31,131 nt of DNA from a virus (Duplodnaviria > Caudoviricetes): positions 1-31,131 of the IMG/VR virus record IMGVR_UViG_3300020045_001881; one strand, given 5' to 3'. Below the pieces are notes generated by a model that searched no databases, had not been told where the DNA came from, and was given only the letters and a program-made list of their open reading frames with translations. Both the position numbers and the translations under genes were made by a program. This document shows, piece by piece, positions 2,544 to 31,131 of the stretch; position 1 is the stretch's first letter, and each line of letters opens with the position of its first letter.

Positions 2544-2929
2544 ACATGTGGGCCGCATTAGTTCCTGAACAGCGCATAACGCATCGCCATGTCGTCGCAA
2601 AACCGCAGCCAGACAAGCGAGAAAAGCGCCTGAATGACGCCGCATTGCGAACTTCTGCATCGCGCACGAAACGCGAGCTGAAACAGGCTGAAATCGCGCG
2701 GCTTATGGGGCTTGCAAACAGCAATGGCGCTAGCCAAACGCAGGGCGGCGCGCTGGAGGAAAAACGCCGCGAGCTTGGTTTGAAGCAATACGAACTTGCC
2801 GATCTTCTCGGAGTCAGCAAGCACTATTACAGCGACGTGAAGGCCGGCCGGCGCACACTGCATCTTGCTGCTGCGCGGCGAGCGTTTGCGCTTGGGGTGG
2901 ATGCGGGTGTGTTGCTGGGTAACGCATAG
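2540..2929 (+). CDS. XRE-family HTH protein
   Basis: ATGA overlap with AGGA RBS; RRELGLKQYELADLLGVSKHYYSDVKAGRR; stop codon lies within attC-like site A1. Confidence 0.7.
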   Translation: MNMWAALVPEQRITHRHVVAKPQPDKREKRLNDAALRTSASRTKRELKQAEIARLMGLANSNGASQTQGGALEEKRRELGLKQYELADLLGVSKHYYSDVKAGRRTLHLAAARRAFALGVDAGVLLGNA

Positions 2930-2970
2930 CTGCCCGGTGCGGAGCATCCGTGCCGAGCGTTGAGTTAAAC
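2917..2970 (-). repeat. attC-like site A1
   Basis: Minus strand GTTTAAC-TCAACG-CTCGGC...GGCAG-CTATGC-GTTACCC; R and L boxes present, L pairing imperfect. Confidence 0.6.
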
Positions 2971-2991
2971 CGAATTTTGATGGAGACGAAT

Positions 2992-3267
2992 ATGGACGAG
3001 CGAGGCGCGAAGGCGCAAGGACTAGAAGTGCACCGCCGAGATATGGCGTTTGTGCGTGGGTTTGTTACCTGCACGAACTGCGGAGCGAACTACCACGCGG
3101 CCAACCCGCGAGCAAGGACGTTCTGCCAGATGTACAGCAGGCCCGTGGAGCCGCTTGAAACTGAGAAGAACATTCTCATGGCCGAAGCGTGCGACCAGTG
3201 GGTTGCGGATGGACTGGACCGCAACATGGTTGTTCATCCTGACCACTCGTACAGATACGAAGATTGA
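2992..3267 (+). CDS. Cassette-borne hypothetical protein with CxxC
   Basis: GGAG RBS at 2982-2985; flanked by complementary GTTAAACCG(2964-2972)/CGGTTTAAC(3270-3278). Confidence 0.65.
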   Translation: MDERGAKAQGLEVHRRDMAFVRGFVTCTNCGANYHAANPRARTFCQMYSRPVEPLETEKNILMAEACDQWVADGLDRNMVVHPDHSYRYED

Positions 3268-3271
3268 TGCG

Positions 3272-3329
3272 GTTTAACGTTGGAGTTGAACGATGAACGA
3301 AGTGAATACGGTCGAACGACCTGTTATGC
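3272..3329 (-). repeat. attC-like site A2
   Basis: Minus strand GCATAAC-AGGTCG-TTCGAC...TTCAA-CTCCAAC-GTTAAAC. Confidence 0.7.
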
Positions 3330-3577
3330 CGGTGGCGTGGATGTCGCTGCGTGATAGGTTTTACAAGACCCGCATGATGGCTGTAGAGAACTGCGAACAA
3401 CTGGTGACGGCGCTATACGCGCTGACGCCTGAGCAAGTCGCTGTGCTGGAAAAGTACGCGGCAGATAAAGCATGGGCGGCGCGAGATTTGAGCAAATGCA
3501 AGTGTGACCACAACGAAACGTGCGAACACTGCTATCAGCCGAACCTACGGCATAACGCAGAAATAACCGGCGGCTGA
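3293..3577 (+). CDS. Cassette-borne phage hypothetical protein
   Basis: Starts inside A2 (alternative ATG at 3326), stops inside A3; PVAW module and Cys-rich C-terminus. Confidence 0.65.
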   Translation: MNEVNTVERPVMPVAWMSLRDRFYKTRMMAVENCEQLVTALYALTPEQVAVLEKYAADKAWAARDLSKCKCDHNETCEHCYQPNLRHNAEITGG

Positions 3578-3607
3578 AAGCCGTCCGCGTTGATTGACGG
3601 GTTAGCC
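3550..3607 (-). repeat. attC-like site A3
   Basis: Minus strand GGCTAAC-CCGTCA-ATCAAC-GCGGAC GGCTTTCAGCC GCCG-GTTAT-TTCTGC-GTTATGC; canonical architecture. Confidence 0.85.
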
Positions 3608-3632
3608 GTCTGATAACTACGGAGAAAAGAAG

Positions 3633-4052
3633 ATGAAACCGGAACAGAAACTGAAATGGGCGGTGCTGGCAAAAGTGGCCGGATGGGAGAAGAAGCCGGC
3701 GCCAGAGTACCCGTGCGCGAACGTGGACGAACTCTACGACGCGCTGGTCGAAGCGGAGTCACATTGGGATGGCAAGTCCGAAGTGCGCAGCGGCGAGGTT
3801 GAGACCGGCCTGCCGTGCGACTGGTCACGCCACTACGAGAGCAAGGCCGTTGCCATGAAGATGCCTGACGGCTCGTGGGTCGGATGGACGTACTGGTACG
3901 GCGGTGGCAAGCACGGCGAACCGGAGGCGATTGACTGGATGGAAGACGCCTACGACTTGGATTGCCGCGAAGAGGAAAAGACGATGATCGTGCGGACATT
4001 CAGCAAGCCCGAGACGGCTAACGCAAATTCCACGACACGTCCAAATAACTAA
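3633..4052 (+). CDS. Cassette-borne conserved phage hypothetical protein
   Basis: GGAG RBS; SRHYESKAVA...WVGWTYWYGGGKHGEPEAIDW; ends GTTAGCCGTCT(3601-3611)/AGACGGCTAAC(4012-4022) are complementary. Confidence 0.8.
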   Translation: MKPEQKLKWAVLAKVAGWEKKPAPEYPCANVDELYDALVEAESHWDGKSEVRSGEVETGLPCDWSRHYESKAVAMKMPDGSWVGWTYWYGGGKHGEPEAIDWMEDAYDLDCREEEKTMIVRTFSKPETANANSTTRPNN

Positions 4053-4062
4053 TTACTGCGAC

Positions 4063-4263
4063 ATGTCGCATAACTATGGAGCCGATATGCAGCGATCAAA
4101 AATAGCGATCTGCGTGCCGCGCGACAAAGGCATGCCGCCATACGCGCAGTGCGCCGGATGCTCGCGGACTGCTTGGGCTATTGCTGACGGCAAGCGGCCA
4201 ATTCAGCACCCGCCAGCGCTTGATAAACAGGGCGAGTGCCCGAGTAGATTGGAGATGAAATGA
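4063..4263 (+). CDS. Small hypothetical protein (start uncertain)
   Basis: Cys-containing ORF coupled to the next gene by ATGA. Confidence 0.5.
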   Translation: MSHNYGADMQRSKIAICVPRDKGMPPYAQCAGCSRTAWAIADGKRPIQHPPALDKQGECPSRLEMK

Positions 4264-4376
4264 CGGACAACCAAGTATTCGCTATCTGCGGCGCAGTAGT
4301 CGGATTGGCATTTTTTGCTGTGTGCGCGCTAAGAATCTGGCTTGATCACAAGGAAGAAATGAGGGAAGAGGAATGA
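4260..4376 (+). CDS. 38-aa single-pass membrane protein
   Basis: MTDNQVFAICGAVVGLAFFAVCALRIWLDHKEEMREEE; GGAG RBS; ATGA overlaps at both ends; too short for the ORF track. Confidence 0.65.
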   Translation: MTDNQVFAICGAVVGLAFFAVCALRIWLDHKEEMREEE

Positions 4377-4618
4377 ACAACGACGCGAGCCGGGAGGCGT
4401 TTGAAAAGTGGTGTCGCACAGACGACGAAGACCTTGAAGACGGCTCCCCAAGCCCACACGACTATGACGCTCATCATAAATACTGGCTTTACGCGGCTTG
4501 GCAAGCATCACGCAAGCAGGCGCTTGAAGAGGCGGCGAAAGCCTGCGACGACCTCAGCAATGGAGTGCTGCACTACGCAGACTACTACTGTGCAAAAGTA
4601 ATCAGGAGCATGAAATGA
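4373..4618 (+). CDS. Phage hypothetical protein
   Basis: REAFEKW...AWQASRKQALEEAAKAC modules; ATGA coupling. Confidence 0.7.
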   Translation: MNNDASREAFEKWCRTDDEDLEDGSPSPHDYDAHHKYWLYAAWQASRKQALEEAAKACDDLSNGVLHYADYYCAKVIRSMK

Positions 4619-4806
4619 CAAAAATAGGCTGCGTGCAGCACGACTGCGATGAATGCAAGAGGCGCGAATCAGATCAGCGCAAGTTGCGCGAAATGATCGA
4701 AACCGCGTGGATTGCCGGCTACTACCACGCGGGCTATACAAACGATGGCGCCTATGCTCAAGCCGAGGCGGCCAAGTGTGCGGATGAACTTTTGGGGGCG
4801 AAATGA
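4615..4806 (+). CDS. Phage hypothetical protein
   Basis: IGCVQHDCDEC motif; ATGA coupling. Confidence 0.65.
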   Translation: MTKIGCVQHDCDECKRRESDQRKLREMIETAWIAGYYHAGYTNDGAYAQAEAAKCADELLGAK

Positions 4807-5648
4807 TGACGACTATTGAAGCAATGAAGCAGGCGCTTGAAGCGCTTGCGAAGTACATTGGAGGCGTCAGCATTCTGAACGACGGCCCCGATGCTAGTGA
4901 TGTAGAGCATGCAAATGAAATGCTTGTCAAAAGTATGCAATTGGCTCGCCCGGCAATAAATGCCCTGCGCGAAGCCATTGCCCACGAGGAAGCGCAGATG
5001 GCGGAGCCGGTGGCATGGCGAGTTTGGATTGGCAACAATGACGGTCAGCAATACATCTACAGCGAGGATGGCGACGGCGAACCGCTCTACACACGCCCAG
5101 CCCCAGCGAAAACCAGCGAGCGGGCTGCGTTGATCAATGAATCCAGAGTATTTGCAGACAATTTACGCGTGGTGATGGAGGATCAAGCGGCTGGTGTTAT
5201 TGATTCTTTATGCGACATGCTGGCCGCTGATGCCGATGCATACAACCAAGGCCGGTATGATGAGCAGGCGGCCCAAGGCCCATATCCTTATCCGGAGGAT
5301 GAGCCGATGGCCGCCGATGCGCAGGAAGTGGCAGTGCCGCCTGGGTGGAAGCTGGCGCCGATTGAGCCTACTCAAAAGATGCTTGATGCAACTTATGCGG
5401 GACAGCATTGCAGCGAGATATGGCACGACATGCTCAACGCCGCGCCACAGCCGCCACAAGCAGGGCGCAAGCAGATGGCGGATGATGAGATTTTGAGCCT
5501 TGTAACAGTCCGCTATCCTAATTGGCGTCAGGACATCCAGCCTGCGTTTGTCTTATGGGTGGCCCGCGCCATCGAAGCCCATTACAAGATTGGCAAGCAA
5601 GAGCCTACGGATTGGAGTGCGGCAGCCATTGGGGAGGCGATGCCATGA
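4803..5648 (+). CDS. Phage modular hypothetical protein
   Basis: IEAMKQALEAL, EPVAW..PLYT, VPPGWKLAPIEPT and ARAIEA modules. Confidence 0.75.
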   Translation: MMTTIEAMKQALEALAKYIGGVSILNDGPDASDVEHANEMLVKSMQLARPAINALREAIAHEEAQMAEPVAWRVWIGNNDGQQYIYSEDGDGEPLYTRPAPAKTSERAALINESRVFADNLRVVMEDQAAGVIDSLCDMLAADADAYNQGRYDEQAAQGPYPYPEDEPMAADAQEVAVPPGWKLAPIEPTQKMLDATYAGQHCSEIWHDMLNAAPQPPQAGRKQMADDEILSLVTVRYPNWRQDIQPAFVLWVARAIEAHYKIGKQEPTDWSAAAIGEAMP

Positions 5649-5803
5649 CATGCGAACACGGCTGCAACGGCTGTGATGAGTGCATCGACGATGACGACTC
5701 ATACGATGAACCAGAGTGCGAGCGCTGCCACGGCGACGGCATGGACCCGTTGACCGACTGCCTGCTGCCGTGTCCACTTTGCCAAGGAGAACAACGACCA
5801 TGA
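5645..5803 (+). CDS. Small Cys-rich zinc-finger protein
   Basis: CERCHGDG...CPLCQGE (CxxCxGxG type); ATGA overlaps. Confidence 0.6.
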   Translation: MTCEHGCNGCDECIDDDDSYDEPECERCHGDGMDPLTDCLLPCPLCQGEQRP

Positions 5804-6045
5804 ACCGCTACCGCTGCACCAGCTGCAAAAAGATCAGCGCCGGCCTAGAGTTACTTCAAGCCGTCAACCCGTTTGATCCGACCGACGCGATAACCGGCTG
5901 CCCGCATTGCAAACAGATCGACAACTTTGATGCCGTGTGCGATGAGCCTGGCTGCGATGAAACTGTTTGTGGCGGCTGGCCGAGTGAAGCTGGGTATCGG
6001 CTTACTTGCAGCAAGCATTGGAATAAGAAAGTGAGGGTTGAATGA
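5800..6045 (+). CDS. Small zinc-finger protein
   Basis: CTSC, CPHC, CDEPGC...CSKH; ATGA overlaps. Confidence 0.65.
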   Translation: MNRYRCTSCKKISAGLELLQAVNPFDPTDAITGCPHCKQIDNFDAVCDEPGCDETVCGGWPSEAGYRLTCSKHWNKKVRVE

Positions 6046-6281
6046 GCGCCATGAACCTACAACCCATAGCAATTGACCCCGACGGCGCAGCGCAGTTTGT
6101 GGCCTTGTCGGTCAGCACACTGGAAAAACTTGTGCGCCAAGGCGACTTCCCAAAGCCGCGAAAAGTCAGCGACCGCCGCGTGGCTTATCTGGTGCGCGAG
6201 TTGATTGAATGGATGGAGTCGCGCCCGGTGAGTGATCTGCTGCCGCCTGCGAATACTGGGGCGAAGAAGGGGGCGGCGTGA
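6042..6281 (+). CDS. AlpA-family excisionase/recombination directionality factor
   Basis: LSVSTLEKLVRQGDFPKPRKVSDRRVAY; located near the integrase. Confidence 0.85.
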   Translation: MSAMNLQPIAIDPDGAAQFVALSVSTLEKLVRQGDFPKPRKVSDRRVAYLVRELIEWMESRPVSDLLPPANTGAKKGAA

Positions 6282-7000
6282 ATGAGTTGGCTCTTTTCGC
6301 GGGCGCTGGTGGAGGAATACTCGGCGGCAAGCTGCTCGGCTGGCGAACAGTCTGCGCAGTCGAGTTCAACCCCTACGCCGCAAGCGTTCTTGCCCAACGA
6401 CAGAATGAAGGACTTCTCCCTGCCTTCCCGGTTTGGGATGACGTTCGGACCTTTGATGGACACCCTTGGCGCGGACGTGTTGACGTGGTTTCTGGCGGCT
6501 TTCCCTGCCAGGACATCAGCGCGGCAGGCAAGGGAGGCGGCATTGACGGCGCCCGCTCTGGGCTCTGGCGAGAAATGGCCAGAATCATTGGCGAGATTCA
6601 ACCCCGATTCGTCCTCGTGGAAAACAGCCCAATGCTCACTGTTCGCGGACTCGGACGAGTCCTTGGGGATCTGGCCCAAATGGGGTTTGATGCTCGATGG
6701 GGAGTGCTGGGAGCTGCCCACGTTGGCGCGCCCCATCTCCGAGAGCGAATCTGGATTCTGGCCGACGCCGACGGCAGTTACAGCGACGGGTGGCGCAGCG
6801 CTCTGCAAGTGGGGCGGTTCGGGCGCCCGAGCAAAGTTGCGGACGATGGTGACGGCAAAGGAGTTGAATGGCCCGCTAAATCCCCAGTGGGTATCCTGGC
6901 TGATGGGGTGGCCGCTCGGGTGGAGCAGCTTACTGCCCTTGGAAACGGGCAGGTTCCAGCAGTGGCAGCAGCAGCATGGAGAATGCTCGGAGGTTGCTAA
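6278..7000 (+). CDS. C5-cytosine DNA methyltransferase, catalytic (alpha-like) chain lacking motif IX
   Basis: Motifs I (LFAGAGG), IV (GGFPCQD), VI (ENSP), VIII (HLRERIW), X (ALGNGQVP). Confidence 0.9.
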   Translation: MNELALFAGAGGGILGGKLLGWRTVCAVEFNPYAASVLAQRQNEGLLPAFPVWDDVRTFDGHPWRGRVDVVSGGFPCQDISAAGKGGGIDGARSGLWREMARIIGEIQPRFVLVENSPMLTVRGLGRVLGDLAQMGFDARWGVLGAAHVGAPHLRERIWILADADGSYSDGWRSALQVGRFGRPSKVADDGDGKGVEWPAKSPVGILADGVAARVEQLTALGNGQVPAVAAAAWRMLGGC

Positions 7001-7034
7001 ATTAACGCCTCCAGCCTCTCCGCCAGCAGCGTAA
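6282..7034 (+). CDS. Overlapping-frame methyltransferase partner (beta-like) chain with motif IX
   Basis: 250 open codons in the +1 frame; WPTPTA and LNPQWVSWLMGWPLGWS (motif IX-like). Confidence 0.7.
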   Translation: MSWLFSRALVEEYSAASCSAGEQSAQSSSTPTPQAFLPNDRMKDFSLPSRFGMTFGPLMDTLGADVLTWFLAAFPARTSARQAREAALTAPALGSGEKWPESLARFNPDSSSWKTAQCSLFADSDESLGIWPKWGLMLDGECWELPTLARPISESESGFWPTPTAVTATGGAALCKWGGSGARAKLRTMVTAKELNGPLNPQWVSWLMGWPLGWSSLLPLETGRFQQWQQQHGECSEVAKLTPPASPPAA

Positions 7035-8238
7035 GCCAGTGCCGGCGCTCTGTGTCGTATTCGTAAAGGTTATAAATCCCCACTACGCCAGGCTGAACGT
7101 GGCCCAATATCGCCTCACCTATTTCATTGTGGCAACCCATCGCCGCCAGCATCGTGCGCCCGGTGCGCCGCAGATCATGTGGGCTCCAGTGCGTAACGGT
7201 CAGGCGTTGGCGCACATGGTCCGGCCTGCTCTTGCAATACGGTTGCAGGTAGTTAACCTTGCTTTGCATGTAAGTCTGCTGCTGGTGCCCGACAACACCC
7301 GCTCTTGACGTGCTCGGAAAAAGCCAGCCATCACAGCGCAGGCGCTGCACGATCTCCAGCGCCCGCCCGACAAGCGGCACGCGCAGATCGGTCGCCGCAG
7401 CTCGGTGCGCGCCCTTGGTCAACGCCTTGGGAACGGTCCACCAAACCCCATCCGTTTCGTCCGTGATCTGGTTGCCGTGCATCTGCACAATCTCAGCGCC
7501 GCGCGTGCAGGTCCACAATTGAACTGTCAGAAAGTCCTGAACTTGCTGGGAAAATAGCGCCAGGTCGTGATTGAGCAGCGTCTTGATTTCCTTGTCGCTC
7601 AAGGTGCGTTTCGCCGTGCCCTTGTGCTTGCCATCGCGGATTGCACCCTTGCTGCGCAGCTTTCGCACCGCGACCAATCTCCACCAGTTTGGTAGCTCAT
7701 CGTCAATGCGCCCCGCGTCCAGCGCATAAGCCCAGGCCGCGCCCATCTCGGTTTTGACGCTGCCGGCAAGTACCGGGCGGTCACTCAAGCCTTCCACCAG
7801 ATCAAACACAAAGCGCCGGGTCACGTCAGCCGCTGGCAGGTCGGCATGGTCGGCCAGTGCGTTGACAAGACGCTGATGCACGGCCTTTGCCCCGCGCGCT
7901 TCCCGGCGTTTGGCAAGGTAGCCGCTCGCATAGTCGTCCACCATCTGGCCCAGGGTGTAGCCTGCATCCGGCGCGTTCTTTGGCTTTGTTTTGCGCGTCA
8001 GGTCTTCGCCTGCGTCCCTGCGTGCGCGAAGCTCCTGCCACTGCTGGGCGGCTTCGGCCACGGGCATTGCGGGCCATGAGCCGATTTTTATTTGCTTTAA
8101 TCTGCCGTGAAGATCGCGATGACGGTAAATCCAGGTGTGCCGCGTTTGCGCCCGCACAAGATGCAGCCCAGGGCAACCGCCCACGACAATGTGCTCACCC
8201 GGTTTAAGCAGTTTTGCAGCCCGCGCATCAAAGTACAT
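6997..8238 (-). CDS. int: P4-type tyrosine integrase with N-terminal arm-binding domain
   Basis: GLHLV...WIYR...IKIGSWPAM arm domain; catalytic TCTRGAE, HDLRRT, ILGH and IYNLY motifs; alternative GTG starts at 8241/8244. Confidence 0.92.
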   Translation of the reverse strand: MYFDARAAKLLKPGEHIVVGGCPGLHLVRAQTRHTWIYRHRDLHGRLKQIKIGSWPAMPVAEAAQQWQELRARRDAGEDLTRKTKPKNAPDAGYTLGQMVDDYASGYLAKRREARGAKAVHQRLVNALADHADLPAADVTRRFVFDLVEGLSDRPVLAGSVKTEMGAAWAYALDAGRIDDELPNWWRLVAVRKLRSKGAIRDGKHKGTAKRTLSDKEIKTLLNHDLALFSQQVQDFLTVQLWTCTRGAEIVQMHGNQITDETDGVWWTVPKALTKGAHRAAATDLRVPLVGRALEIVQRLRCDGWLFPSTSRAGVVGHQQQTYMQSKVNYLQPYCKSRPDHVRQRLTVTHWSPHDLRRTGRTMLAAMGCHNEIGEAILGHVQPGVVGIYNLYEYDTERRHWLTLLAERLEALI

Positions 8239-8248
8239 CACCACCCCA

Positions 8249-8502
8249 AAAACCTATACTAAAACCCATACCAAGGGCCAAGTGTAGCCGGGTTTAAGCA
8301 AGCGCAGAAAAGGCAAAACTACGGCGAAAAGTTACGCCAAACAGGCGAAATATGATGGTAAATCAACGGCTTACGAGATTAATCCCAATGAAATCAACGA
8401 CTTACGAGAATGCTGAAAAACATGAACATAGTGATTCTTGAAAACAGTCTTCTCCAATGGAGAAACGGAGTTTTCTGAAAAACACATACTAAAACCTATA
8501 CT
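8249..8502. other. Putative attP
   Basis: Two pairs of tandem 12-bp repeats (8249-8272, 8479-8502) bracket two WATCAANNNNTTR matches; lies beside the int start. Confidence 0.75.
8361..8404 (+). promoter_or_regulatory. Two IHF-binding consensus sites
   Basis: AATCAACGGCTTA (8361-8373) and AATCAACGACTTA (8392-8404). Confidence 0.75.
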
Positions 8503-8568
8503 TGAACAGTCAGCGCGACCGTTGGCGCATAGACCATTTTCGCGGCGTCACGCAAATGGAAATACCTG

Positions 8569-8597
8569 TTGCGATGCTGGTTTAATCGGAGTATATT
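8569..8597 (+). promoter_or_regulatory. Sigma70-like promoter facing cassette array B
   Basis: TTGCGA-17 bp-TATATT. Confidence 0.65.
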
Positions 8598-8604
8598 TAA
8601 TTGT

Positions 8605-8665
8605 GATTGACGCCGCCTTAACGCGACACCCGTAAGGGCGGTCGCCGTTGAAGGCACAGTTATGC
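8605..8665 (-). repeat. attC-like site B1 (terminal, degenerate R')
   Basis: Minus strand GCATAAC-TGTGCC-TTCAAC-GGCGAC...GTCGC-GTTAA-GGCGGC-GTCAATC. Confidence 0.7.
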
Positions 8666-8680
8666 AACAGGAAGGATGAA

Positions 8681-8923
8681 ATGGAAACGACACCTAGAGT
8701 TATTGGGCTATCGCGTGACAATAGAACCCAGCGATGGAGCGTAACGTGCCCGAAGTGCGGCCATGTATTTGAACCGCAAACGACGAGACTGTCATGGCAA
8801 GACATTGACCGTCCTAAATCAAAGTGCGGAGCGCGAATGATGGCTGACTACAACTCAGAGCCTCCGACCGTGAGGCTGGCGCATAACGCCGCGTTAAGCG
8901 GCGGGCGCAGCCCGTCCGCTTGA
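8681..8923 (+). CDS. Cassette-borne zinc-ribbon protein
   Basis: AGGAAGGA RBS; CPKCG; bounded by GTTATGC/GCATAAC; stop inside B2. Confidence 0.7.
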   Translation: METTPRVIGLSRDNRTQRWSVTCPKCGHVFEPQTTRLSWQDIDRPKSKCGARMMADYNSEPPTVRLAHNAALSGGRSPSA

Positions 8924-8937
8924 ACTGCTGGTTATGC
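8881..8937 (-). repeat. attC-like site B2
   Basis: Minus strand GCATAAC-CAGCAG-TTCAAG-CGGAC GGGCTGCGCCCG CCG-CTTAA-CGCGGC-GTTATGC; canonical. Confidence 0.9.
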
Positions 8938-8963
8938 CGGCGAACTTTGAAAGAGGAGGCGAC

Positions 8964-9290
8964 ATGAGTATTGAAAAACAAATCGTTGAAGCTCAGTACA
9001 TGACCAGTGCTTTGCGACGAGAAGCCGCAGAGGAAATCGCGAGGTTGCGCAACGCATTGGCCCAAAGCGTGCAGATTGTCGCAGAACACCGTGACGGGCG
9101 TCTGGCCGCACTGGAACGGGCCGCAGTCTTTGAGGCGCGGCTGCAAGAGATTGGCGACTTGGCGGCGAGTAGCCAAACAGGCCCGGCACTGCGTGAAGTG
9201 TTGGCACAGATCGAGACGATGACGGATATGAGGCATAACGCAAAAAGTGAGGGGGCGAGCGGATTTATCGCGAAGCTCCCTCTCGACTGA
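8964..9290 (+). CDS. Cassette-borne coiled-coil phage protein
   Basis: GAGGAGG RBS; EAAEEIARLR module; stop inside B3. Confidence 0.7.
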   Translation: MSIEKQIVEAQYMTSALRREAAEEIARLRNALAQSVQIVAEHRDGRLAALERAAVFEARLQEIGDLAASSQTGPALREVLAQIETMTDMRHNAKSEGASGFIAKLPLD

Positions 9291-9300
9291 CGGGTTCGAC
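9233..9300 (-). repeat. attC-like site B3
   Basis: Minus strand GTCGAAC-CCGTCA-GTCGAG-AGGGAG...CCCC-CTCAC-TTTTTGC-GTTATGC. Confidence 0.85.
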
Positions 9301-9343
9301 GGCGACCGTACTGGAAACCACACACCATACCGAGGACGATACG

Positions 9344-9613
9344 ATGCAAACAGAACAAGCGGTGAAGATGGCAGCGAAGCTCTACGAGTGCCGAGACACG
9401 GCAAAGCGGCTCTTTGGCACGGCCTACCAGCAGCGAATGGACGCCTACGGCCAAGCCGTGAAGTCTGCCGCCAACGCGATGAATTGCAGCGAAGTGGCCG
9501 CAGCGACGACGCTGGCGACCAAGGCGGGCGGACTGTCGGCGATCTGCTTCCTGGCCGCCGTGGTGGAGATGACCGAGCCGTCGAACGCTGGAGGTAAGCG
9601 GAGTGACGACTAG
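9344..9613 (+). CDS. Cassette-borne hypothetical protein
   Basis: GAGG RBS; ends GTTCGACGGC(9294-9303)/GCCGTCGAAC(9577-9586) are complementary; stop inside B4. Confidence 0.75.
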   Translation: MQTEQAVKMAAKLYECRDTAKRLFGTAYQQRMDAYGQAVKSAANAMNCSEVAAATTLATKAGGLSAICFLAAVVEMTEPSNAGGKRSDD

Positions 9614-9660
9614 GAGCGAAGCGACGACGGCGGTACGGCCGCTTGACCGCAATGTTATGC
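9580..9660 (-). repeat. attC-like site B4
   Basis: Minus strand GCATAAC-ATTGCG-GTCAAG-CGG...CCG-CTTAC-CTCCAGC-GTTCGAC. Confidence 0.85.
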
Positions 9661-10145
9661 GTATTTGGTGCTGCGGATGTGGTTGTGACGTGGATGCACG
9701 GCTGACGGACGGAGGAGAGATTTACCCGCACCGTGAAGACCTGCATAGCCTGCCGTTTTGGCGCTGCAACACCTGCGGTAACTTTGTTGGGTGCCACCAC
9801 AAGACAAAGAACCGGACGGCCCCGCTTGGGTGCATTCCTACGCCGGAGTTGAAGGAAGCCCGCAAGCACTTGCATGCACTGATTGACCCGATATGGCAGT
9901 CGGGGCGTATGGGGCGGCGCGAACTGTACGAGGCGATTAGCCGCGAGGTTGGCTGGAACTATCACACGGCCAAGACTCGCACGATTGAAGAGGCGCGGGC
10001 AGCCTACAAAGCCGCGCAGAAGCTGACGCATAAGCAATATATAGAGCAAAAGGCGCCCTATAACACCACTGCAGGCGCAACAAAAAGCGGCGCAAAGTCT
10101 CACACACCAGCGCCATGCAGCTACATTAAAAATAGCAACAATTAG
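9603..10145 (+). CDS. Cassette-borne DUF3268-like zinc-finger protein
   Basis: CCGCG...EIYPHR...CNTCGNFVGCH...PLG...H..IDPIW; start at GTG 9603 (GGAGG RBS inside B4) or ATG 9657. Confidence 0.75.
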   Translation: MTTRSEATTAVRPLDRNVMRIWCCGCGCDVDARLTDGGEIYPHREDLHSLPFWRCNTCGNFVGCHHKTKNRTAPLGCIPTPELKEARKHLHALIDPIWQSGRMGRRELYEAISREVGWNYHTAKTRTIEEARAAYKAAQKLTHKQYIEQKAPYNTTAGATKSGAKSHTPAPCSYIKNSNN

Positions 10146-10150
10146 AGCAG

Positions 10151-10306
10151 ATGAAAAAACCAGGCCGGCCAGTCGGAACAAAGAAGCCGCCGACCTACCG
10201 CGTGCAAGTGATGCTTGATGAACCGGCGCCGCGTCTATCGCGCATCAAGCGGCTGGAGTGGATTGTTGAGCGGTTGCAAAGGATGATTGAGAGGATGAAG
10301 CGATGA
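10151..10306 (+). CDS. Small basic, putative DNA-binding protein (51 aa)
   Basis: MKKPGRPVGTKK AT-hook-like start; ATGA overlap with the next gene. Confidence 0.5.
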   Translation: MKKPGRPVGTKKPPTYRVQVMLDEPAPRLSRIKRLEWIVERLQRMIERMKR

Positions 10307-10536
10307 AACGGTACAACCATTTTTGCGGTTATGACGGCGGCGGGCCAGCAGAGGCCGAAGAGTCGCCAGATGGCGCCTTTGTTCGATACGATGATGCGGT
10401 AGCTGCCGTTGCAGCAGAGCGCGAGCGGTGCGCGAAGGCTGTGGAGTCGCTGGATGACGACTACCTGCGCGCATCTCCGTGTCGCAATGCGCTGAAACGC
10501 GCCGCCAAGGCGATACGGGCGCCATCAATTCCGTGA
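10303..10536 (+). CDS. Phage hypothetical protein
   Basis: MKRY...ESPDGAFVRYDD and AERERCAK...AKAIRA modules. Confidence 0.7.
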   Translation: MKRYNHFCGYDGGGPAEAEESPDGAFVRYDDAVAAVAAERERCAKAVESLDDDYLRASPCRNALKRAAKAIRAPSIP

Positions 10537-10546
10537 CGCCACGAAA

Positions 10547-10798
10547 ATGAACGGAGACACAATGGACAACGTACAGTCAACCGGAATGCGGTACGTTTTG
10601 CACCCTGGTTACGTAACCAGCAAAAATGACGGTCAAGAGCATTTCATCGGCGGTCCGCGATTGGCTATGTTGTACGGGGTTGACATGCGCCAGTGCGTAT
10701 TTGGCGACGTGAAGGAATACCGAGAGCAGGAGGGCGACGTGCATTTGTGGCCTGACTACCACGGCAACTACACCACGCCTTCTAATGGAAGCAGTTAA
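10547..10798 (+). CDS. Phage hypothetical protein (likely start 10562)
   Basis: GGAG RBS before ATG 10562; YVLHPGYVTSKNDGQEHFI; abuts the o-spanin stop. Confidence 0.65.
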   Translation: MNGDTMDNVQSTGMRYVLHPGYVTSKNDGQEHFIGGPRLAMLYGVDMRQCVFGDVKEYREQEGDVHLWPDYHGNYTTPSNGSS

Positions 10799-28217: not shown

Positions 28218-28611
28218 CGCGCACCATTTGCAGCCCCAGCCGCGACATCGCAGCAAAAGGCTCCTGATCGCTCACGTCAACCTGCGCCATGATGGCTTCG
28301 ATTGCAGACTCAGGCGGCGGTGTCAGCTTGTGCTCTTTGGCCAGCGCGGTGAAGGCTTTTGGGTCTGCTGGCGTGTCGGCAATCACAGCCTCGCCCTTGT
28401 CGTTAGCCGTGATGCGTTTGAGCGGCATGATGCCAGCGAACTCGGTGCCGATATGGCCAGTGCTGACCCAGTGAGTCGGCGGCCCATCACCCGTTGGCGA
28501 TAGCGGGGTTGAAAACATATTGCTTGCTGCTGGGCCGAATGCGTCGGCCAATGCCCGGACTGTACTGACGATTGAATCAGGCACGATCATTGTGCGAAAT
28601 GCGTTTGTCAT
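28207..28611 (-). CDS. Hypothetical protein
   Basis: MFSTPLSPTG..P.THWVSTG; coupled overlaps with neighbours. Confidence 0.65.
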   Translation of the reverse strand: MTNAFRTMIVPDSIVSTVRALADAFGPAASNMFSTPLSPTGDGPPTHWVSTGHIGTEFAGIMPLKRITANDKGEAVIADTPADPKAFTALAKEHKLTPPPESAIEAIMAQVDVSDQEPFAAMSRLGLQMVRDEL

Positions 28612-29117
28612 AGCGCCACCCCTTTAAACGCGCCCATATAAACCGCCCGTGCTGCGTCTGCCGCTGCCGCCGCATCTTCCAACCTCTTGTGATAACTGCA
28701 ATGAACTTTTTTCTTGCTTTTATAGACTCTGGCAATCCACAGATTGTCTTTCTTTGACCAATAGACGCCGCGATGTCCGCTGGTATTGCGCGAATCCATT
28801 TTTACACGGTGACACCCATTTTCAGACTGTGTCGCCAATCGAAGGTTTGACGGCCTGCGGTCGCTGGTGTCGCCATTCCTATGGTCCACCTTGAACCCAA
28901 TTGGGTCTACGCCTGTCGCCATAAAGTAAATTACCCTGTGCACAAGATACAAGCTGCGCATGACATTGACGCTTGGATACGCGCTAGTTTTTCCTCCAGC
29001 GACACTCCCGGCAAGCTCGCCGCCACTAGAGAGTTTTCTAATTAGTTTTCCTGACGCCGCATCTAGCGTGAACATTTCACGAAGCATTTCAATGGGAGGC
29101 ATCGGTTTGTATTTCAT
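28608..29117 (-). CDS. HNH endonuclease with C-terminal AP2-like domain
   Basis: HRVIY...VDHRNGD...NLRLAT.SEN followed by NTSGHRGVYW. Confidence 0.88.
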   Translation of the reverse strand: MKYKPMPPIEMLREMFTLDAASGKLIRKLSSGGELAGSVAGGKTSAYPSVNVMRSLYLVHRVIYFMATGVDPIGFKVDHRNGDTSDRRPSNLRLATQSENGCHRVKMDSRNTSGHRGVYWSKKDNLWIARVYKSKKKVHCSYHKRLEDAAAAADAARAVYMGAFKGVAL

Positions 29118-30463
29118 AGCGTCACTCCAGTCTTGCCATTTACCCAGCGTTCACCCGCTGCAATTTGGCTTGGTGTTGATGCCGCGCCACGAATTATCAG
29201 GCTGTAAAGGTTGCCGTTGAAGTAACTGCTGGTGCCTGCGCGTGCGCCGACGTAGAGTGTTTGAGCAGTGAAGTTGCCGGTGCCTGCGGTAGTACCTGCG
29301 AATGTTTGAGCGCTGGGTGCGGCCCCATTCACACGATATACGAACTCTGCGCCCTGCGTAGCTCCGGCAATATCGTATGCAGCGACCACAACATCAGTAG
29401 ACGGGGCGGTATAGGTGCGGCCCGCACTTGTTGTTCCCACCGTCGATCCACTAAGCGCCCCACCATAGGATAGTCTGTTGCCCCCTCCTGCCACGACGCC
29501 GACGCCTACACCAAATGTTCCTGCAGTCCCGTCAGGAAATCCACTTGTTTCCGCTATTGCCGCAAACGCAGCATCACTCAGCTTCCTAACCCCCGCCCAC
29601 ACTGTCATCTTGTCCGTTGCGCTGAAATCTACAGTGGCAGCGGTGGCAAGGGCGTCATCTACGCCGTCGAATTTAAGATAACGCTTAAAGCCTACAGTAT
29701 CGTAGTCCGTGGCAGCGTTGATGCGCTGGTAGCGGGTGGCGGTGGAGCCGGTTTCTATCTGACAACGTGTTGCCGTAACAGATAGTGGCGTTGTATACAC
29801 ATACGATGCCAGTGCGTTTGACGTAGATACATAAATAGCAAAACCGCCCGCTGCTGTTGTTGTCCCACACGTTGCTGTAACAGTCACTATCCATCCGGCG
29901 CCGTCCGCTGTTGCGGTAGCAGTAGCGCCGCCATAGGGCGTTCCGAGTGTGCCCGTTGTTAAATCTATCGAGCACCCCCTTGCGGTGTCATCGTTGTAAT
30001 GTATGCCCGCAAATAAGGCGGTCCCTTTTTCAAGCCTACATCGCAGCACATAGACCGTACCTGCCGTTAGCGACACGCTTACATTTTGTGTGAAGTGAAA
30101 ACCAGTACCCGCAGTATCTGTAATAACGCCTTCCGCCGTAACTGTTACAAGTGACTTGTTCCAAGCCGCATTACTAAAATCCTCGCTGTAAGTCAGCAGA
30201 TTAACCCGCGCACTCAGCGTAGGCCGCTTACTCGCGGTCGCTTGGATGAGATGGTTGCCGCGCCCGCTCTTGTCCAAGACTTTGCCCACAGGCTGCTCAA
30301 CCGCAGTAACTGGCGTAGTGCCTGCGCTGTCTTGGAATAGCGTTGTCAGGTCTGAAAAATCATAGTAACAACCCTGTTCACCAGCCCTAAACAAGTTCAT
30401 TATTCGTTGCAGAAGCGTTGGCTGCAACAAGATCACCTTCATCACGCTTCTGGCTAACGACAT
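29114..30463 (-). CDS. Virion decoration/fibre protein with LamG-like domain
   Basis: LFQDSAGTTPVTA...DKSGRGNH, NLLTYSEDFSNAAW, LKFDGVDD; Thr/Gly/Ala-rich. Confidence 0.65.
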   Translation of the reverse strand: MSLARSVMKVILLQPTLLQRIMNLFRAGEQGCYYDFSDLTTLFQDSAGTTPVTAVEQPVGKVLDKSGRGNHLIQATASKRPTLSARVNLLTYSEDFSNAAWNKSLVTVTAEGVITDTAGTGFHFTQNVSVSLTAGTVYVLRCRLEKGTALFAGIHYNDDTARGCSIDLTTGTLGTPYGGATATATADGAGWIVTVTATCGTTTAAGGFAIYVSTSNALASYVYTTPLSVTATRCQIETGSTATRYQRINAATDYDTVGFKRYLKFDGVDDALATAATVDFSATDKMTVWAGVRKLSDAAFAAIAETSGFPDGTAGTFGVGVGVVAGGGNRLSYGGALSGSTVGTTSAGRTYTAPSTDVVVAAYDIAGATQGAEFVYRVNGAAPSAQTFAGTTAGTGNFTAQTLYVGARAGTSSYFNGNLYSLIIRGAASTPSQIAAGERWVNGKTGVTL

Positions 30464-31131
30464 GCTGCCTCCATCTTTGCAAGACGGTACTTATCCCACC
30501 GATTTTTATTTGCCACGCGAAGGGCTGCTAAACGGCGAGCCTCGGATTCCGGATCTCTCGCTTTCGCACCAGCGGACATGTTTTCGCGCTGTTCCGCAGT
30601 TTTAGGCTTGCCCTTAAACCGTTCACTCACAGCCTGCTTCAAAGCGTCAGAGTGCGACCACCCGCTGCGTTTTGCGGCGTAATCCTCTTTTTCCTGGTCA
30701 GACATTGCGAGCCACCTAAGTCTCAGGCTGTCCGCTACTCGCTGCGCTGATTCTTGGCTAACAATTCGCCCCGTGTTTGCGCGAGATATCTTGGCCTTTG
30801 TCTCGTCAGAGTGCGTCTTGCCAGTATTTGCAGCACGTATTTTCTCGATAGCTTCCGGTGTAGGCTTGCGGCCACGCGCCAAATCAGACAGTCTGGCGCG
30901 CATTGCCGCGTCCATCACTCGCCCGCGTTGGCCAGCCGGCATGAGGTTGTACCCTTTGTCTGGGTTTCGGCAGTCGTACTCCTTCATCCAGAACATCTCG
31001 CGCGCATCAAGGAGTTCCGGGCGGCACTCTTCCAGCACTTCGCAGGCAAAGGAATCGACGCCGTAGAGCCTCATGGCATCATATAAGTGCGACTTGTCGC
31101 CCCTACGCGCCGACTTCCTGTGCTCATAGCT
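30454..31131 (-). CDS. GIY-YIG endonuclease with NUMOD3-like repeats (5' partial)
   Basis: Frame open to the window edge; EH...LYDAMRLYG...EVLE...RE..W...GYN; HSDETKAKIS-type repeats. Confidence 0.82.
   Translation of the reverse strand, partial: SYEHRKSARRGDKSHLYDAMRLYGVDSFACEVLEECRPELLDAREMFWMKEYDCRNPDKGYNLMPAGQRGRVMDAAMRARLSDLARGRKPTPEAIEKIRAANTGKTHSDETKAKISRANTGRIVSQESAQRVADSLRLRWLAMSDQEKEDYAAKRSGWSHSDALKQAVSERFKGKPKTAEQRENMSAGAKARDPESEARRLAALRVANKNRWDKYRLAKMEAACR

Follow-up and report, generated by a model that had tools for sequence, protein, structure and literature searches.

Introduction

Integrons are known as bacterial devices in which the choice of the recombining strand keeps the cassette genes facing the cassette promoter (Pc). 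Toxin-antitoxin cassettes carry promoters of their own, and in reverse integrons of the Treponema type the integron integrase gene, intI, is flipped, so that intI and the cassette open reading frames (ORFs) are co-directional. Here, we analyze the cassette arrays of a 31-kb temperate phage contig, the entire IMG/VR record IMGVR_UViG_3300020045_001881 (Caudoviricetes; 31,131 nucleotides (nt), hereafter the window), in which seven integron-type attC sites are accompanied by ORFs lying on the attC bottom strand. As in the Treponema-type arrangement, intI and ORFs are co-directional in two related loci, L207 and L306 (L and G numbers denote loci or contigs and genomes, respectively); in these, however, the relation of intI to attC is the usual one and the ORFs are flipped.

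Compared with described integron cassettes (PMC5027507; statements on cited papers refer to the portions of their text available to us), the window shares the R and L boxes, the extra L-box base, the purine-rich folding strand, the AAC crossover, the cognate R boxes and the single short ORF per unit. It differs in that the ORFs are on the bottom strand after their own attC, that no complete Pc-attI-intI platform was recognized in the window, and that transcription would run toward the attI end. The phage clusters of attC sites lacking an integron integrase (CALINs) of TJE1, PH101 and P12002L (Qi et al. 2023, PMC9892861) are likewise phage-borne, and IntI1 was found to recombine them; the PH101 array is inverted too. 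In contrast to our description, the available text presents the arrays of PH101 and TJE1 as typical, with no mention of an ORF-to-attC inversion, and TJE1 is canonical. In the case of single attC sites lacking an integron-associated integrase (SALINs) and of attG sites (Loot et al., bioRxiv 10.1101/2022.09.11.507474), IntI inserts at short GWT sites and excises nearby, and, similarly, the phage gene bordering our array A on the left ends in sequence that reads GTT on minus; that system, however, concerns ordinary cassettes in bacterial chromosomes, and no inverted class is described in the part available. Antisense or gene-less cassettes of chromosomal integrons (bioRxiv 10.1101/2023.11.21.568050) also show some bottom-strand transcription, but they are a minority with their own promoters, whereas the window arrays are wholly inverted and apparently promoterless within an operon. 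In the full-text literature searched, from which subscription papers mostly fall outside, phage CALINs are described and an ORF-to-attC inversion is not; the available portions of PMC8618304, PMC8876359 and bioRxiv 10.1101/2023.11.21.568050 likewise describe no inverted class.

The class presented here combines true attC chemistry with a non-canonical cassette layout. Based on the comparisons below, we consider it highly probable that the seven units are mobile integron-type cassettes belonging to an inverted, phage-enriched class, likely moved by an ordinary integron integrase acting in trans.

attC sites and cassette ORFs occupy opposite strands in two arrays

The sites form two separate attC arrays, array A (2917–4022) with three cassettes and array B (8605–10034) with four. 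Their components are as follows.

Array A
2540–2929, plus: helix-turn-helix (HTH) phage gene (Pfam HTH_3 and frame), the last codons of which run through the site 1 R box (AAC, Asn); left border of the array
2917–2970, top strand minus: attC site 1, recombinogenic bottom strand on plus (13.9 bits, E 0.5)
2992–3267, plus: ORF A1, function not assigned, alternative start at 2980; own stop before the next R box
3272–3329, minus: attC site 2 (33.8 bits); putative unit A2, 3278–3555
3293–3577, plus: ORF A2, function not assigned; continues through the next R box, read as Asn, to a stop within site 3
3550–3607, minus: attC site 3 (29.1 bits); putative unit A3, 3556–4021
3633–4052, plus: ORF A3, PHROG match (phrog_25120), function not assigned
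4016–4075: terminal R box (4016–4022; site 4) together with sequence similar to the array end found ahead of intI in L306 and L312

Array B
8605–8665, minus: attC site 5, with GAC in place of AAC in its degenerate left box (14.1 bits, E 0.45); putative unit B1, 8611–8886
8681–8923, plus: ORF B1, candidate small zinc-ribbon-like protein (weak family matches below cut-off)
8881–8937, minus: attC site 6, the most canonical (52.9 bits); putative unit B2, 8887–9238
8964–9290, plus: ORF B2, function not assigned; C-terminal tail read from the next attC
9233–9300, minus: attC site 7 (14.9 bits); putative unit B3, 9239–9585
9344–9613, plus: ORF B3, function not assigned; cassette also in an IntI-bearing phage (L207, G456)
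9580–9660, minus: attC site 8 (30.3 bits); putative unit B4, 9586–10033
9603–10145, plus: ORF B4, DUF3268 zinc-finger protein (Pfam; PHROG, phrog_1934)
10028–10034: terminal R box, degenerate (AAG for AAC); L224 has AAC and a further attC here

The initial annotation had described a single series of seven antisense cassettes at 2917–9660. While the seven sites are real, this range in fact holds two arrays, separated by 4.5 kb of ordinary phage genes, an integrase and attP-like DNA. The seventh cassette extends to 10033, past the end given, the two terminal R boxes (4016 and 10028) were missing from the description, and the AAC triplet is lost at 8605 (GAC) and 10028 (AAG).

Read on the plus strand, every site consists of an R box, a 5–6 nt spacer, a 7-nt L box, a variable centre, an L box of 8 nt that includes the extra base, a further 5 nt and a GTT box. 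The R boxes at the ends conform to RYYYAAC/GTTRRRY at six of the seven sites, site 5 having GAC. The extra L-box base, which gives the polarity, is clearest at sites 2, 3, 6 and 8; the extra G is located in L'' of the attC bottom strand (PMC5027507), and the bottom strand of the aadA7 attC is printed in a layout equal to that of the window plus strand (Table S3, PMC9892861). A covariance model was built from 38 of 43 bacterial sites flanked on either side by top-strand genes, and its polarity was checked independently by the side of intI in bacterial loci, which was the expected one at 18/18 bacterial sites with intI in the locus (among the matches listed). Over the whole window, this model placed all seven sites on minus with exact ends, at ranks 1–4 and 6–8 among 10 matches, rank 5 being the plus-strand shadow of 8881–8937 (21.8 bits versus 52.9 on minus). 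Four of the sites reach E < 0.001; the remaining three (9233–9300, 8605–8665 and 2917–2970; E 0.29–0.5) are not significant alone and draw their support from the exact ends of their boxes and from the pairing of R boxes over each ORF. Box layout and model ranks thus confirm that the attC pattern reads on minus at all seven sites and the ORFs on plus; an assignment of the sites to plus by the model, which would have spoken against this polarity, did not occur.

Predicted folding was more stable for the plus than for the minus strand in six of the seven sites, one of them by only 0.1 kcal, and in modelled circle junctions the R box was paired in 7/7 cases (z from -1.4 to -4.2; the modelled fold of site 5 has z -4.1). 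With three and four neighbouring sites, both arrays fall under the CALIN definition (at least two nearby attC without intI), and in 0/7 units does the ORF lie on the top strand and end at its own attC as in a canonical cassette.

Coding strand of the cassette ORFs

Changes with respect to relatives fall mostly at plus third positions in A3 (130 of 232), B3 (228 of 429) and B4 (545 of 892), and no plus stop was observed in any of the 20 comparisons of these three ORFs with their relatives. Codon changes were synonymous in 30 and non-synonymous in 14 cases between A3 and L066, and in 27 and 6 cases, respectively, between B4 and L224. A3, B3 and B4, which were covered by the substitution test, are therefore coding on plus and under purifying selection; for A1, B1 and B2, plus-frame protein relatives exist. 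The overlapping minus ORFs, in contrast, show mostly non-synonymous changes and frequent stops in relatives, and none of eight matched a PHROG family. They are shadows, and the possibility that they were the real genes did not hold.

The tail and stop of six of the seven cassette ORFs are supplied by sequence past the junction, and the R-box triplet is read in frame by 7/8 upstream ORFs (six as Asn, one as Lys at a degenerate box). At viral sites, the R-box frame gave 21 TAA stops, 14 Asn and 0 in the third frame, with 16 earlier stops; at bacterial sites, the corresponding numbers were 23, 9 and 0, with 45 earlier stops. A frame lock as a phage-specific trait was accordingly rejected, since bacterial sites show an equal pattern.

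Cassette boundaries and the side of the crossover

All 28 variable bases pair between the right box of each site and the left box of the next, compared with 14/28 within sites (R-box pairing across ORFs, 24/5040 permutations). At site 1, the body of which belongs to cassette A1 (putative unit 2923–3277), the pairing with the box at 3272 is 4/4. Such pairing shows the units but not their side, which is given by the relatives. Homology of A3 to L066 and L067 (85%) spans 3550–4023, beginning at the left box of site 3 and ending at site 4; that of B3 to L208 spans 9232–9597, three different attC bodies following B3 in L207–L209; and that of B4 to L224 and L225 (90%) spans 9575–10037. The attC bodies next to these units differ between the window and the relatives. 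Seven close relatives of B2 agree up to the R-box Asn, after which six differ in the tail and one ends. Among motif-selected viral sites, pairs sharing a flank shared only the right one in 8/10 cases, only the left in 1 and both in 1, and bacterial pairs behaved alike (right only in 32/36, left only in 3, both in 1, among the matches listed). In phage and bacteria, the attC body thus goes with its right flank, which argues that both are cut on the bottom strand at its left box and that only the gene is flipped. Taken together, these comparisons point to a mobile unit bounded by AAC crossovers, directly for A3, B3 and B4 and at the protein level for B2.

Relatives of the cargo also occur without attC in ordinary phage operons, namely for A1, A3 (L068 and L069), B1 (88%, in L314) and B4, for which 69 related viral loci were found. 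ORF A1 has 9 relatives in metagenome contigs, with a bottom-type attC upstream in L306, L307 and L308, a collapsed one in L309 and none in L305. In viral contigs, no relative was found for B2, and for A2 no full relative, only an 11-residue match. A3 and B3 had no match in plasmids; B3 and a trypsin-like protein of L029 were not found in the 401 genomes searched, a search run without positive control. BLAST against phage records gave partial ORF matches only, no joint skipping a cassette was seen among the 10 matches listed of one DNA run, and an empty-site search through the HTH gene returned no relative.

Several related loci show arrangements of their own. The collapsed attC ahead of the A1 relative in L309 (~1460–1500) consists of left box, spacer and right box only. 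In L330 (1480–1713), an attC nearly identical to site 2 lies ahead of a relative of the window non-cassette gene at 5645–5803, and the reading frame of a methylase gene extends into the R box of this attC. L214 and L222 (~1900–2330) hold AT-rich B3 relatives; in L222, the ORF is apparently enclosed by an attC-like inverted repeat, with one arm on each side, L214 having a similar left arm, and in L219 and L220 cognate R-like boxes of another type surround the B3-relative ORF.

Cassette polarity differs between phage and bacterial loci

The initial annotation had called for attC strand and ORF strand to be tabulated over phage genomes and bacterial integrons. We gathered attC sites with one motif from 65 viral and at least 130 bacterial loci (50 of the bacterial ones with short flanks only), genes being called with a home-made caller which, as judged by eye, recovered most of the genes annotated in two test phages. 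The contrast was evident. The site's own gene was on the bottom strand at 49/56 called viral sites (62 in total) versus 18/95 called bacterial sites (131 in total; among the matches listed), and at 38/44 versus 14/79 once identical bodies were collapsed (among the matches listed). A profile search with stricter gene scores, in which 30 viral and 191 bacterial sites were without a called gene, gave inverted polarity at 75/87 viral and 6/191 bacterial sites. By locus, the majority polarity was inverted in 47/51 scorable viral loci versus 3/66 bacterial ones, supporting the earlier suggestion of a distinct inverted cassette class enriched in phages. Only 4 sites reached the score cut-off of the profile survey in 90 ORF-anchored loci, all of them inverted, and in G017 all 13 sites (six in one arm, seven in the divergent other) follow the gene strand. 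Inversion in phages is a strong bias and no rule.

Beside these counts, we observed in L029 (2302–2982) a trypsin-like peptidase cassette of canonical polarity, antisense inside an inverted phage array and with 12-bp complementary ends. An inverted array in a bacterial genome (L082, in G051) carries Mom-like, PAPS-reductase-like and radical SAM cargo, and its Mom cassette family is found in several viral loci as well.

Source of the recombinase

The window encodes a tyrosine integrase of ordinary phage type with an arm-binding domain (6997–8244, minus; Pfam). It was ruled out as the cassette recombinase, as it lacks a match to TIGR02249. In G456, a phage with capsid, portal and terminase genes, a full-length intI (IntI 430 bits) is preceded directly and on the same strand by an inverted array holding cassette B3, and the metagenome contigs L306 and L312 carry an A1 relative in an inverted array with intI, arranged as in G456. 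The bacterial genome G051 has its inverted array among phage-type genes and IntI on another contig. In L207 and L306, side and strand of intI relative to attC are as at 16/18 bacterial sites (among the matches listed). In a 17-row tree, the two inverted-array IntIs, both with long branches, did not group (2% of bootstrap trees), and the tree is uninformative on a single clade.

In our analysis, the most telling link regarding the enzyme is the one to PH101, whose attC1 and attC2 were recombined by IntI1 with the bottom strand above the top strand (Qi et al., PMC9892861). All 17 genes annotated in that stretch lie on the bottom strand of these two sites, which corresponds to the inverted layout. 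The covariance model gave no match in P12002L. To the right of site 4, the stretch up to 4075 could tentatively be regarded as an attI-like remnant, a motif drawn post hoc from two sequences, and no IntI remnant was found after site 4.

Proposed mechanism and alternative explanations

We propose that each unit comprises the attC body, a leader, the ORF and an R box, so that the attC hairpin would precede the gene and the coding strand would be the bottom strand. IntI, from the host or a co-infecting phage, would fold and cut the plus strand at the left AAC, probably during induction, when single-stranded DNA is present. Because the cassette genes point the same way as the phage operon, their transcription would depend on the operon promoter, placed by geometry at the end far from any attI. 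The attC may double as leader, a ribosome-binding motif and the start of A2 and B4 lying within it: site 2 contains GGAG and an ATG (3293) in frame with ORF A2, and site 8 contains GGAGG and two starts in the frame of ORF B4, GTG (9603) and ATG (9657). Six of the seven ORFs would obtain their C-terminal tail and stop from the attC or flank of the neighbour. In a host integron, inverted cassettes are predicted from geometry to be antisense to Pc, and host-type cassettes would be antisense in a phage array, as is the trypsin-like cassette of L029; the phage and host pools would then share the enzyme and not expression. Recombination of an attC with a secondary site located shortly after a phage gene may give rise to new inverted cassettes. 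Secondary sites close to an inserted attC are documented to serve in excision (bioRxiv 10.1101/2022.09.11.507474), which would yield the inverted layout.

Several points weigh against this interpretation. The seven sites are known from their sequence alone; three are weak in the model and two boxes are without AAC, so parts of the arrays may be fixed. A1 relatives have differing attC bodies, and in L330 the site 2 body stands before another gene. No integron integrase was found in the window (IntI tblastn empty, no TIGR02249 match), which is an incomplete genome, and among 77 viral records IntI was above the TIGR02249 cut-off in 2, one being a provirus with a canonical integron and the other G456. 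Phage arrays of canonical polarity do exist (TJE1, L014 and L015). Finally, the survey used a single attC motif and a home-made gene caller on contigs that are related to one another, and its p-values therefore overstate independence.

If the true genes were on minus, or the orientation accidental, the units would be ordinary bacterial cassettes or rare products of top-strand insertion. Long minus ORFs are present (8814–10181, 455 aa) and top-strand recombination can invert a cassette (PMC5027507), but the substitution pattern, the stops and the missing PHROG matches of the minus frames described above speak against such genes, the cargo relatives are phage genes with A3 and B3 lacking plasmid matches, and an inverted insertion would turn the ORF together with its own attC, so that seven of seven would not be expected; this explanation is largely refuted and has almost no probability left. 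Nearly as improbable is that the cassettes are moved by another recombinase, or by a phage IntI choosing the opposite strand, so that plus would be the functional top strand and the layout canonical for this enzyme. Some phages do have their own IntI beside inverted arrays, both long-branched in the small tree; yet the attC body moves with the right-hand gene as in bacteria, indicating a cut at the usual box, the placement of intI in L207 and L306 is that of bacterial loci, and at the inverted PH101 sites the bottom strand is the one preferred by IntI1 (PMC9892861).

That the sites are now relics, once mobile and today serving mainly as leaders or translational couplers that are rearranged independently of IntI, through homologous recombination or slippage, we regard as unlikely. 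It would agree with the lack of IntI in the window, the two degenerate boxes, the collapsed attC of L309 and the relatives of A1, A3, B1 and B4 that are without attC, whereas the perfect R-box pairing at seven units and the AAC boundaries in relatives 85–90% identical argue for recent site-specific moves. Strand exposure may, in turn, be a cause of the inverted class rather than an alternative to it, the bottom strand lying on the lagging template or the non-template strand, where attC would fold faster, and the genes following the operon. Excision is raised when the bottom strand is on the lagging template (PMC5371416; likewise faster in PMC8946536), the GC skew of the window is compatible, and G017 shows a joint flip of skew, genes and attC. 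In every case examined, however, skew is confounded with gene strand, and canonical phage arrays persist, which leaves this driver possible though rather doubtful. Replication-strand selection may favour the inverted class; it cannot replace it, because it would turn the whole cassette and not the gene within.

Returning to inverted cassettes moved by integron integrase, phages likely trade their own mirror-image cassette pool using the same kind of recombinase. The fuller proposal of a mirror-image phage integron system, with a pool of its own made from phage genes, host or phage IntI and polarity as an expression firewall, is tentative and slightly less likely than not to hold. Selection of such a firewall is a hypothesis based on the single L029 case and on the anti-phage content of host cassette arrays (bioRxiv 10.1101/2024.07.02.601686). 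If true, captured host cassettes, often anti-phage, would lie antisense in the phage, as would phage cassettes in the host, linking the arrays to integron anti-phage defence, as polarity would decide which partner can express a traded cassette.

To what was described before, the window adds boundaries for three cassettes, a cassette shared with an IntI-bearing phage, the link to the PH101 assays and an R-box frame bias that is not phage-specific. With a widespread reversed class in phages, IntI probably drives phage mosaicism too, and attC-based annotation would misplace cassette boundaries in phages, on the wrong side. The paired cassette and non-cassette versions of phage genes make a cassette origin testable; gene families with and without attC could, if this holds, be a first tractable record of cassette birth.

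Window setting and additional observations

The plus strand up to 7000 carries early-type genes (exonuclease, HTH, AlpA and methylase). After the integrase follows a short plus operon (8681–10798), and next to it, on minus, come the lysis and tail genes. Across most of 1–21 kb, the plus strand has a positive GC skew, minus-strand late genes included. A weak promoter-like match lies on plus at 8569–8597, the promoter scan having found 2 matches versus 1.2 expected, and an Rfam search of the window gave 0 matches.

Further repeats were noted around both arrays. Upstream of the integrase start, an attP-like region (8248–8501) contains two direct-repeat pairs of 24 nt and 19 nt. A 24-nt inverted repeat pair (88%) at 8533–8559 and 10526–10549 flanks the plus operon containing array B; its left copy is itself palindromic and also occurs in L005 and L050. 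To the right of the terminal R box of array A, a short palindromic motif occurs twice at 4033–4068, the second copy being a perfect 14-bp palindrome, and as a pair this motif was not found in other loci. The intergenic stretch 706–790, between the exonuclease and the next gene, has inverted-repeat character and gave no match to the attC model.

Regarding the remaining genes, the cytosine methylase gene (6278–7034) is overlapped over its whole length by a second plus ORF of 250 codons in another frame. Two probable homing-endonuclease genes are located among the late genes, at 28608–29117 (judged by eye) and at 30454–31074, the latter with a below-cut-off match to a group I intron endonuclease.

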